This document shows positions 4,235 through 4,848 of a stretch of DNA of 10,025 bases, piece after piece. The notes under the pieces are model-generated. The model ran no database searches. It was not told the DNA's origin and worked only from the letters and a program-made list of their open reading frames with translations. How positions within the stretch are numbered: the first letter of the stretch is position 1; each line of letters opens with the position of its first letter. Location of the stretch: IMG/VR virus record IMGVR_UViG_2693429733_000018, one strand, 5' to 3'. A program made the translations under genes and the position numbers. The stretch comes from a virus. Its lineage: Duplodnaviria > Heunggongvirae > Uroviricota > Caudoviricetes.

Positions 4235-4252
4235 CAGATGTGAGTAAACTCC

Positions 4253-4588
4253 TTATGGACTTTGTTGTTTTAGTCCATAAGGACATATTTGCAGAGTGCA
4301 ACGGTTATTAAAGCATTCATTCAATACGTTATCTGTATTTGTAGGGCATTCCTGGCTGTTTTTGATTAAATTCCAGAATGTTTTATTGAATGGTACTACG
4401 TTGTAAATGGTTACAGGTAGCACTTTGTTATTGAGCATGATGCCTGTGTGAGTCAGTGTAAATATACTTTCAGGAGGTAAGAAAGCATCCGATTGATACC
4501 AGATTATTAATTTTATTTTACTCCATATGACTGAAAAAGATATTCCGCATGATGGCTGGATAACTGTATCAATCACAATCCACTTCAT
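4253..4588 (-). CDS. Hypothetical protein (111 aa) on the minus strand in an AT-rich segment; candidate cargo gene
   Basis: ATG preceded by AAGGAA at 6-nt spacing; candidate minus-strand promoter -35 TTTACA (4650-4655) and -10 TATACT (4629-4634) with a 15-bp spacer; perfect 10-bp inverted repeat (4251-4282) overlaps the stop. No family recognised. Confidence 0.45.
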
Positions 4589-4848
4589 TTAGTTTCCTTG
4601 TTTATGCCTTGCTGGTGATGTTCTGAAAAGTATAAATGATATTTTTGAATGTAAACCATAGAGCAGAATTATTTTTCTGATGTTGTTTATTGTTTATTTA
4701 AATGCAGGGTGGTTTATATCTCGTCTTGTAGTTTATCCATGCATATCTGCTTGATAATCAGGTTTTTATTTAAGGTATGGTTTTGTGTTTTTTCTGTATT
4801 ACATGTCAGGTATTTTAAAGAATTATTTTTCAGATGGTGGAAAGAACC

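Follow-up and report, generated by a model that had tools for sequence, protein, structure and literature searches.

The 111-aa open reading frame (ORF) on the minus strand at positions 4253-4588 is, with high confidence, iraL, a prophage-carried gene encoding an RssB anti-adaptor of the IraM/IraL/RssC family. We base this assignment on gene identity, family, fold, conservation of RssB contacts, promoter match, purifying selection and prophage position, all of which were observed here in the window, by which we mean the whole 10,025-nt stretch of DNA that was analysed. The protein was 100% identical to IraL (WP_000871291.1, C_RS06710, c1429/ycgW) of uropathogenic Escherichia coli CFT073 and 62% identical to K-12 IraM. 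The coding DNA was also identical to CFT073 iraL, and the surrounding 751 nt contained four SNPs with respect to that strain (at 4591, 4622, 4779 and 4836), all of them outside the coding sequence. IraL was described as an RssB anti-adaptor by Hryckowian et al., mBio 2014 (PMC4045071); gene, product, partner and phenotype were all published in 2014 and are already known, and the ORF is not a new toxin-like cargo.

The preliminary description of this DNA, made from the letters alone, had reported an AT-rich segment with a 111-aa ORF on the opposite strand, and both were present, at coordinates that were exact or a few bases off. By composition count, the G+C content was 32.7% over positions 4237-4848 as compared with 49.6% for the whole window; it was 53.4% in the left flank (3700-4236), 53.6% in the full nanS-p gene, 34.5% in the iraL coding sequence and 29.5% in the spacer at 4589-4849. 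The features of the region are as follows.

3976-3993: argO-side terminator, followed by the STnc100-family sRNA gene (4038-4227), iraL on the minus strand and the nanS-p stub.
4038-4227, plus strand: STnc100/PasD-family sRNA gene (Rfam RF02076, 133.6 bits, gathering score 47), convergent with iraL.
4197-4218, plus strand: intrinsic terminator of the STnc100-family sRNA (terminator scan and fold).
4250-4283, minus strand: perfect 12-bp hairpin (arms 4250-4261 and 4272-4283, loop of 10 nt).
4253-4588, minus strand: iraL coding sequence, an intact ORF with an ATG start and 111 codons plus TAA.
4599-4594, minus strand: Shine-Dalgarno sequence AAGGAA, 5 nt before the ATG and within the RACE-mapped 5' UTR.
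4589-4621, minus strand: 33-nt 5' UTR, with the transcription start at 4621 taken from the published 5'-RACE end.
4629-4655, minus strand: sigma-70-type promoter, -35 TTTACA (4655-4650) and -10 TATACT (4634-4629), read by eye.
4656-4848, no strand assigned: AT-rich spacer, the upstream regulatory region of iraL and leader of nanS-p (composition, allele alignment).
4849-4978, plus strand: DUF1737 N-terminal stub of a nanS-p-type esterase gene (Pfam PF08410, 57 bits).
4979-6113, minus strand: IS600 (IS3 family), truncated at its orfA end (NCBIfam transpos_IS3; its matches are annotated as IS600 family transposase).

The family of the protein, which had not been recognised in the preliminary description, was identified from several searches. 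NCBIfam model NF007393 (anti-adapter protein IraM) matched with 162 bits (cut-off 121) over residues 1-110 of the 111, and phmmer against the PDB found IraM (chain A of entry 8TWD, E = 9e-32) and not PmrD. The sensitive profile searches and the structure prediction that had been proposed for the 111-aa protein both led to the IraM family, with 8TWD_A as the top structure. Neither IraL nor IraM had a Pfam-A match by hmmscan, even at E <= 10, and the PHROGs v4 match, phrog_4407 (E = 3e-73), is listed as 'unknown function'; this label and the empty Pfam scan may explain why the protein was not recognised in the preliminary description. A precomputed PF11183 PmrD label was found on 19 of 20 homologues and on the Shigella sonnei copies. 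The homologue search gave Escherichia proteins only, at 54-100% identity. The S. sonnei IraL carries L74S; the window has the CFT073 protein and the S. sonnei promoter allele.

Upstream of the coding sequence, a strong ribosome-binding site (AAGGAA) and a plausible promoter of the gene's own had been proposed. The former was present at 4599-4594 on the minus strand, and the latter is borne out by the 5' end of the CFT073 iraL mRNA, which has been mapped by 5'-RACE (PMC4045071) and falls at 4621 of the window. Read on the minus strand, 4621-4590 agrees with the published 5'-RACE sequence, ACATCACCAGCAAGGCATAAACAAGGAAACCA, in 31 of 32 bases, the sole mismatch being the SNP at 4591. The same study assigned sigma-70 -10 and -35 elements to iraL, the hexamers not being printed in its text (PMC4045071). 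Counted by hand, the spacer between the -35 and -10 hexamers that we read is 15 bp, which is suboptimal, and a generic promoter scan did not report the mapped iraL promoter, presumably because it required spacers of 16-18 bp. The -35 hexamer (4650-4655) varies among alleles, STEC 2013C-3252 lacking 1 nt there and phage 640R1 reading TTTATA. This allelic variation at TTTACA is consistent with the point mutation reported in the -35 element of the second iraL copy of JJ1886 (PMC4045071), a strain in which our search with the iraL segment gave matches at two places. The bases at -1 (4622) and in the UTR (4591) differ from CFT073, and the S. sonnei allele has the same two variants. Further upstream, the 260 nt preceding iraL were 99% identical to CFT073, and the AT-rich spacer was 99% conserved across six iraL loci. 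An Rfam scan of 4200-4900 (E <= 1) gave nothing but the STnc100 tail, and no RNA family in the AT-rich spacer. A PhoP-type box as in iraM was considered and rejected, the two upstream regions being unalignable and a single GGTTTA half-site that overlaps the -35 element being the only trace of one.

In published work, iraL mRNA was up by 1.6 log2 at 37 C (PMC12890032) and the iraL level was up in a fur mutant (PMC7157518). For the present host, we infer that the gene is transcribed and its product functional. The alternative that survives best is that iraL is here an intact but silent relic of a decayed prophage, unexpressed or without effect on sigma-S. The surroundings would suit such a relic, in that IS600 has truncated nanS-p and the window is pieced together from incomplete modules of the late region, as would the existence of -35 variants among strains and the doubt expressed about expression of the -35 mutant copy of JJ1886 (PMC4045071). 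We nevertheless consider it improbable, since the coding sequence is intact and its protein identical to the functional IraL of CFT073, the -35 and -10 elements, the start site and the Shine-Dalgarno sequence are as in CFT073 save for the -1 base and one UTR base, and there is purifying selection in the family.

The identification of the ORF as iraL was extended to the structure of the protein. The structure that AlphaFold2 predicted from 14 family members (mean pLDDT 71) was mostly confident over residues 1-80 and below 50 pLDDT over residues 81-111. In it, strands are formed by residues 2-11, 16-22, 26-33, 42-45, 49-52 and 55-66, and residues 69-77 form a helix. The top Foldseek match in the PDB was 8TWD_A (TM 0.91, rmsd 1.2 A, 78 columns, 65% identity), in which IraM(1-78) was crystallised in complex with RssB, followed by the PmrD structures 2JSO, 4HN7 and 2RQX (TM 0.70-0.73, 14-20% identity); beyond these four, nothing in the PDB was significant. 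This result reproduces the statement that the IraM fold resembles only PmrD (Brugger et al., PMC10844676).

The IraM residues at each RssB interface of 8TWD have been listed (PMC10844676), and we compared them with IraL. All five contacts with the receiver domain of RssB (cluster I: I4, I6, W22, K26 and I42) were identical. Among the contacts with the C-terminal domain (cluster II), C14, F18 and W30 were identical and T13S and L75I were conservative, while at the linker (cluster III) I61 and Y62 were identical and H63N and I64V were changed. According to published data, IraL binds only the N-terminal receiver domain of RssB and IraM both domains (PMC4045071), and the pattern seen in the alignment, with receiver contacts kept and the others partly changed, fits this published difference. 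A PmrD-like connector, acting on another response regulator such as PmrA and not on RssB, might be read from the match to the three PmrD folds and from the precomputed PF11183 label on the homologues. It is very unlikely, because the protein shares only 14-20% identity with PmrD, a phmmer search of the PDB recovers IraM and not PmrD, the residues by which IraM contacts the RssB receiver are all conserved, and the identical protein binds RssB (PMC4045071).

The N-terminus of the protein had been described as hydrophobic, and signal-peptide and transmembrane prediction had been suggested for it. The hydrophobic run is present, but it is an RssB-contacting beta-strand and not a signal peptide. 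In a simple hydropathy test the maximum 19-residue Kyte-Doolittle mean was 1.44, below the usual transmembrane threshold of 1.6, Asp7 falls inside the run, there was no cleavage-site-like motif in the N-terminus, and residues 2-11 were modelled as strand beta-1 of the barrel, where Ile4 and Ile6 are RssB contacts in IraM. Neither a signal peptide nor a transmembrane segment was supported. That the protein is an effector or toxin rich in cysteines, secreted or anchored in the membrane, as the hydrophobic run, the five cysteines and the cargo position in the late region could suggest, is with these data extremely improbable, the more so as the homologue IraM is cytoplasmic and was crystallised with RssB.

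The several cysteines reported earlier were confirmed, the protein having five. C81, C92, C97 and C102 were invariant in 14 family members spanning 53-100% identity, and the C-terminal motif C-P-x9-C-x4-C-x4-C-P-[YH]-G was likewise invariant in the family. The crystal structure lacks this cysteine tail, which was modelled as disordered in IraL and has been described as 'less conserved' and flexible. One possibility is that the tail senses metal or redox state and thereby controls the stability of IraL and IraM.

Comparison of iraL with K-12 iraM gave a dN/dS of 0.155, third codon positions accounted for 54 of the 98 differences, and similarity between the two loci was limited to the coding sequence, with unalignable upstream regions. 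Judging from this alignment, the iraL/iraM family is evidently under purifying selection. A chance ORF in AT-rich non-coding DNA would agree with the equal G+C content at the three codon positions (0.35, 0.35 and 0.34, i.e. no codon-position signal), but this reading, to which we give next to no credence, is refuted by the comparative data, namely the low dN/dS with mostly third-position changes and the homology to iraM confined to the coding sequence, and by the full-length family, PHROG and structure matches. Absence of homologues had been named beforehand as one of the joint conditions that would refute the cargo gene; homologues were found, in the IraM/IraL family.

A perfect 10-bp inverted repeat had been reported over the stop codon. 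The repeat is perfect and the TAA of iraL (4255-4253) sits within the 3' arm of the hairpin, although its length is 12 bp and not 10. No equally long perfect repeat was obtained in 500 shuffles of the region (shuffle mean 6.8), and the RNA folds with -17.5 kcal/mol (z = -5.75). The hairpin was invariant in five of six aligned iraL alleles and absent from iraM. With GUUUACU as its tail, a poor U-tract, we regard it as a candidate 3'-end or stability element, which could possibly act as a terminator.

To describe the distribution of the locus, we used positions 4200-4860, from the sRNA terminator across iraL to the beginning of nanS-p, as a megablast query. It was matched in 1446 of 5426 complete E. 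coli genomes (~27%), and a single match covered at least 80% of the query in 1428 of the 1446. Everywhere the annotation of the match reads 'anti-adapter protein IraM', and the next gene is an esterase gene of the DUF1737 or SASA type; the surroundings are nearly always those seen in the window. In iraL prophages, the order was Q, a DNA methylase gene (in some), tRNA genes of the ileZ, argN and argO types and the STnc100 sRNA gene, followed by iraL on the minus strand, the nanS-p esterase gene, the holin and the lysozyme genes. In 933W, the order was argO, a terminator, stxA2B2 (L004 2463-3703), the STnc100 sRNA gene (3778-3983), AsxR on the minus strand (L004 3985-4037) and then L0105/nanS-p. 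Precisely this layout has been published, with morons that lie downstream of PR' and are followed by a convergent sRNA pair and then a conserved phage ORF (Tree et al. 2014, PMC4104026). The corresponding interval had no iraL in 933W, nor in module C of the window.

The interval from the tRNA genes to nanS-p is therefore two adjacent cargo slots split by the STnc100/PasD-family sRNA gene, the first holding stx on the late strand and the second holding AsxR or iraL on the opposite strand. The preliminary description had placed the ORF at the position where stx sits. We rejected the stx slot proper, since stx lies upstream of the STnc100 sRNA gene and iraL lies downstream of it on the opposite strand; iraL occupies the neighbouring slot, in the place of AsxR. 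Co-occurrence of iraL and stx in one Stx phage was also considered and rejected, the prophage carrying iraL having no stx in the two STEC contexts inspected. The moron reading itself held: the segment is a self-contained, opposite-strand cargo of foreign composition between the Q/tRNA block and the nanS-p esterase gene, and calling iraL a lambdoid late-region moron is right in kind, given its own promoter, its deviant G+C content (33% as compared with ~53% in the flanks) and its presence or absence among relatives. On its left, the 'module B terminator' of the preliminary description is present at 4197-4218; it belongs to the STnc100-family sRNA and is not simply tR'. On its right, a nanS-p-like gene does start, at 4849, but it is cut after 43 codons by the truncated IS600 at 4979. 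Homology to CFT073 and 933W stops at 4978, and collinearity with the S. sonnei IS600 ends at 6113, inside orfA. The exact 57-aa product of the stub was found in S. sonnei genomes, where it adjoins iraL and IS600.

The window as a whole is a mosaic of two S. sonnei prophage-remnant loci, and contains four copies of STnc100 (RF02076) by Rfam. The segments, with their identities, are the following.

1-1709: first S. sonnei locus, 99.8%.
1711-4221: second S. sonnei locus, 99.9%.
3997-6113: first S. sonnei locus, 99.6%.
6115-10025: second S. sonnei locus, 99.9%.

At the 1709/1711 junction the tail of an STnc100 copy is joined to the middle of a Q gene, and at 6113/6115 the interior of IS600 orfA is joined to a tRNA block. 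Neither junction was found in complete E. coli genomes, GTDB representatives or the gene-product index. For 1709/1711, an exact 36-mer across the junction was absent from the GTDB species representatives and no complete E. coli genome had it contiguous, and products of junction-spanning ORFs (146, 132 and 104 aa) were not on record in the gene-product index. The mosaic may be either a real rearrangement or an assembly artefact. The iraL finding is unaffected by it, because 3997-4978 is collinear with CFT073 and 3997-6113 with S. sonnei. We also observed, where AsxR would lie in module C, a candidate sRNA on the minus strand (7124-7212), which has a clean minus-strand terminator and a weak OmrA-B match (25 bits, gathering score 40).

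RssB binding and sigma-S stabilization are published for the identical protein and would hold for the product encoded here: IraL interacts with RssB in two-hybrid and pull-down assays and raises the level and half-life of sigma-S in log phase (PMC4045071). In the mechanism that we propose, iraL in the silent prophage would be transcribed leftward and constitutively from its own sigma-70 promoter, starting at 4621. Its cytoplasmic product of 111 aa would fold as a small PmrD-like beta-barrel and bind the 4-5-5 face of the RssB receiver domain, occluding the face that recognizes sigma-S, and RpoS would then escape delivery to ClpXP by the adaptor RssB and accumulate even in exponential growth. 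From the lambda paradigm and the 933W annotation, we infer that the late transcript for nanS-p and the lysis genes would cross iraL in antisense. On induction, antiterminated late transcription might pass the STnc100 terminator and collide or pair with the iraL mRNA, turning the anti-adaptor off. That the state of the prophage thereby sets sigma-S in the host, with iraL on and RpoS high in the lysogen and read-through silencing iraL on induction, is a tentative suggestion that we think rather doubtful.

The comparison with known systems relabels a cargo described as an unknown cysteine-rich protein as a regulator of the general stress response, which is of value for annotation and of little as a discovery; it also shows iraL as a gene spread through E. 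coli and Shigella by lambdoid prophages. The closest system is the potB prophage island of CFT073, whose iraL locus shares with the window the same protein, coding sequence, tRNA genes, STnc100-family sRNA gene, DUF1737 stub and mRNA 5' end. It differs in having ~900 nt (DUF3927 and more) between the tRNA genes and iraL, as compared with ~290 nt in the window module, and its DUF1737 stub, unlike that of the window, is not ended by IS600.

K-12 IraM (b1160, next to prophage e14) is 62% identical to IraL, has the same fold (TM 0.91) and shares the four C-terminal cysteines. It also shares the RssB-receiver contact residues, whereas the contacts with the C-terminal domain and the linker are partly substituted, and it lacks the QQSP tail and the stop-codon hairpin, both present in IraL. 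iraM is induced by Mg2+ starvation through PhoPQ and its upstream region is unrelated to that of iraL, so that the two genes differ in regulation. RssC of Salmonella belongs to the same family according to the literature, with ~49% identity to iraL reported in PMC4045071.

PmrD (PF11183; 4HN7, 2JSO and 2RQX), the connector of PmrA and PmrB, has the same small beta-barrel (TM 0.70-0.73) but differs from IraL in sequence, with 14-20% identity, and in its target, which is PmrA and not RssB. Like IraL, it is a small protein that binds the receiver domain of a response regulator. PmrD binds phospho-PmrA and shields it from dephosphorylation; the partner published for IraL is RssB.

AsxR (RF02703; 933W and Sp5) lies in the same slot and on the same strand as iraL, directly downstream of an STnc100-family sRNA gene and convergent with it, and upstream of nanS-p. 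The two are unrelated in sequence, AsxR being a 53-nt RNA that acts on the sRNA FnrS and iraL a protein gene whose product acts on RssB. AsxR acts on host regulation from within a prophage (Tree et al. 2014, PMC4104026), and AsxR and iraL are alike as prophage elements acting on host regulation. Finally, stxAB and iraL both lie downstream of Q and PR', in the interval that runs from the tRNA genes to nanS-p. stxAB lies on the strand of the late transcript, upstream of the STnc100 sRNA gene, and depends largely on late transcription, whereas iraL, on the other strand and downstream of that sRNA gene, is served by a promoter of its own. The positional refinement is a small one, of two slots, with stx on the late strand and AsxR or iraL on the opposite strand.

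The window (1-10025) is pieced together from segments of two prophage-remnant loci of Shigella sonnei, a mosaic in which every segment matches at 99.6-99.9%, and this arrangement places three partial Q/tRNA/sRNA modules in tandem. The matching segments, and the two abrupt junctions, are as follows.

1-1709 and 3997-6113, matches to the first S. sonnei locus
1711-4221 and 6115-10025, matches to the second S. sonnei locus
1709/1711, abrupt junction from the tail of an STnc100-family sRNA to mid-Q
6113/6115, abrupt junction from the interior of IS600 orfA to a tRNA block

Neither junction was present in 5426 complete E. 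coli genomes, the GTDB representatives or the gene-product index, and the mosaic may reflect either a real rearrangement or a misassembly. A Q antiterminator gene of the PF03589 type is represented twice in the window by its 3' half (51-452 and 1600-2040), with positions 89-388 and 1710-2009 being identical. The second copy is joined in frame with STnc100-derived sequence, generating a chimeric ORF of 146 codons whose product had no record anywhere.

The STnc100/PasD-family prophage sRNA was found in four full copies (Rfam RF02076, 124-161 bits), together with a degenerate one.

1504-1693, plus strand, full copy
4038-4227, plus strand, full copy
6447-6636, plus strand, full copy
6914-7123, plus strand, full copy
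6675-6848, degenerate copy with a weak match (30 bits)

Every copy has a TTGACA resembling a promoter element ahead of it, as well as a terminator rich in GC; the intact nanS-p gene is preceded by two copies placed back to back. The nanS-p-type esterase gene that adjoins iraL, in turn, is interrupted by IS600 after 43 codons (4849-6113). The resulting 57-aa nanS-p/IS600 fusion product is common in this exact form in S. sonnei genomes (888 blocks of the indexed collection), while the window's own IS600 is incomplete as well, its orfA end being cut off at position 6113.

The natural alleles of iraL, which encodes the RssB anti-adaptor IraL, vary mainly within or beside the presumed -35 hexamer (4650-4655, and the same positions in three other iraL loci, L001, L005 and L006). 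The allele of STEC 2013C-3252 has a 1-nt deletion in this hexamer, that of phage vB_EcoS-640R1 reads TTTATA, and that of strain AF39 is changed at the first base past it. This variation at the sequence level suggests that iraL expression differs between strains. At the protein level, residues 81-111 (4253-4348, minus strand) form a cysteine-bearing C-terminal tail, in which C81, C92, C97 and C102 are kept in all 14 IraL/IraM-family proteins compared, at identities down to 53%, giving the motif C-P-x9-C-x4-C-x4-C-P-[YH]-G. The IraM-family tail was taken off for crystallography and has been termed less conserved, and that of IraL comes out disordered in the structure model; a metal or redox module is a possible reading of it. 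The resources disagree on the family: nearly all members carry a precomputed Pfam label, PF11183 (PmrD), whereas hmmscan of IraL and IraM against Pfam-A gave no match even at E ≤ 10, and the PHROGs v4 entry, phrog_4407, is annotated as 'unknown function'.

Module C, the third of the window, lacks iraL and carries a minus-strand intrinsic terminator.

7124-7212, minus strand, interval with the intrinsic terminator GCCCGCGTCTCCCAGCGCGGGCTTTTTTT

The same interval and strand gave an OmrA-B match that was sub-threshold (25 bits as compared with a gathering score of 40), and may hold an anti-sRNA-like gene, as yet unclassified, that converges on STnc100. In the Stx2 phage 933W, by contrast, this slot is filled by the anti-sRNA AsxR, where module C has the terminator and the weak OmrA-B match.
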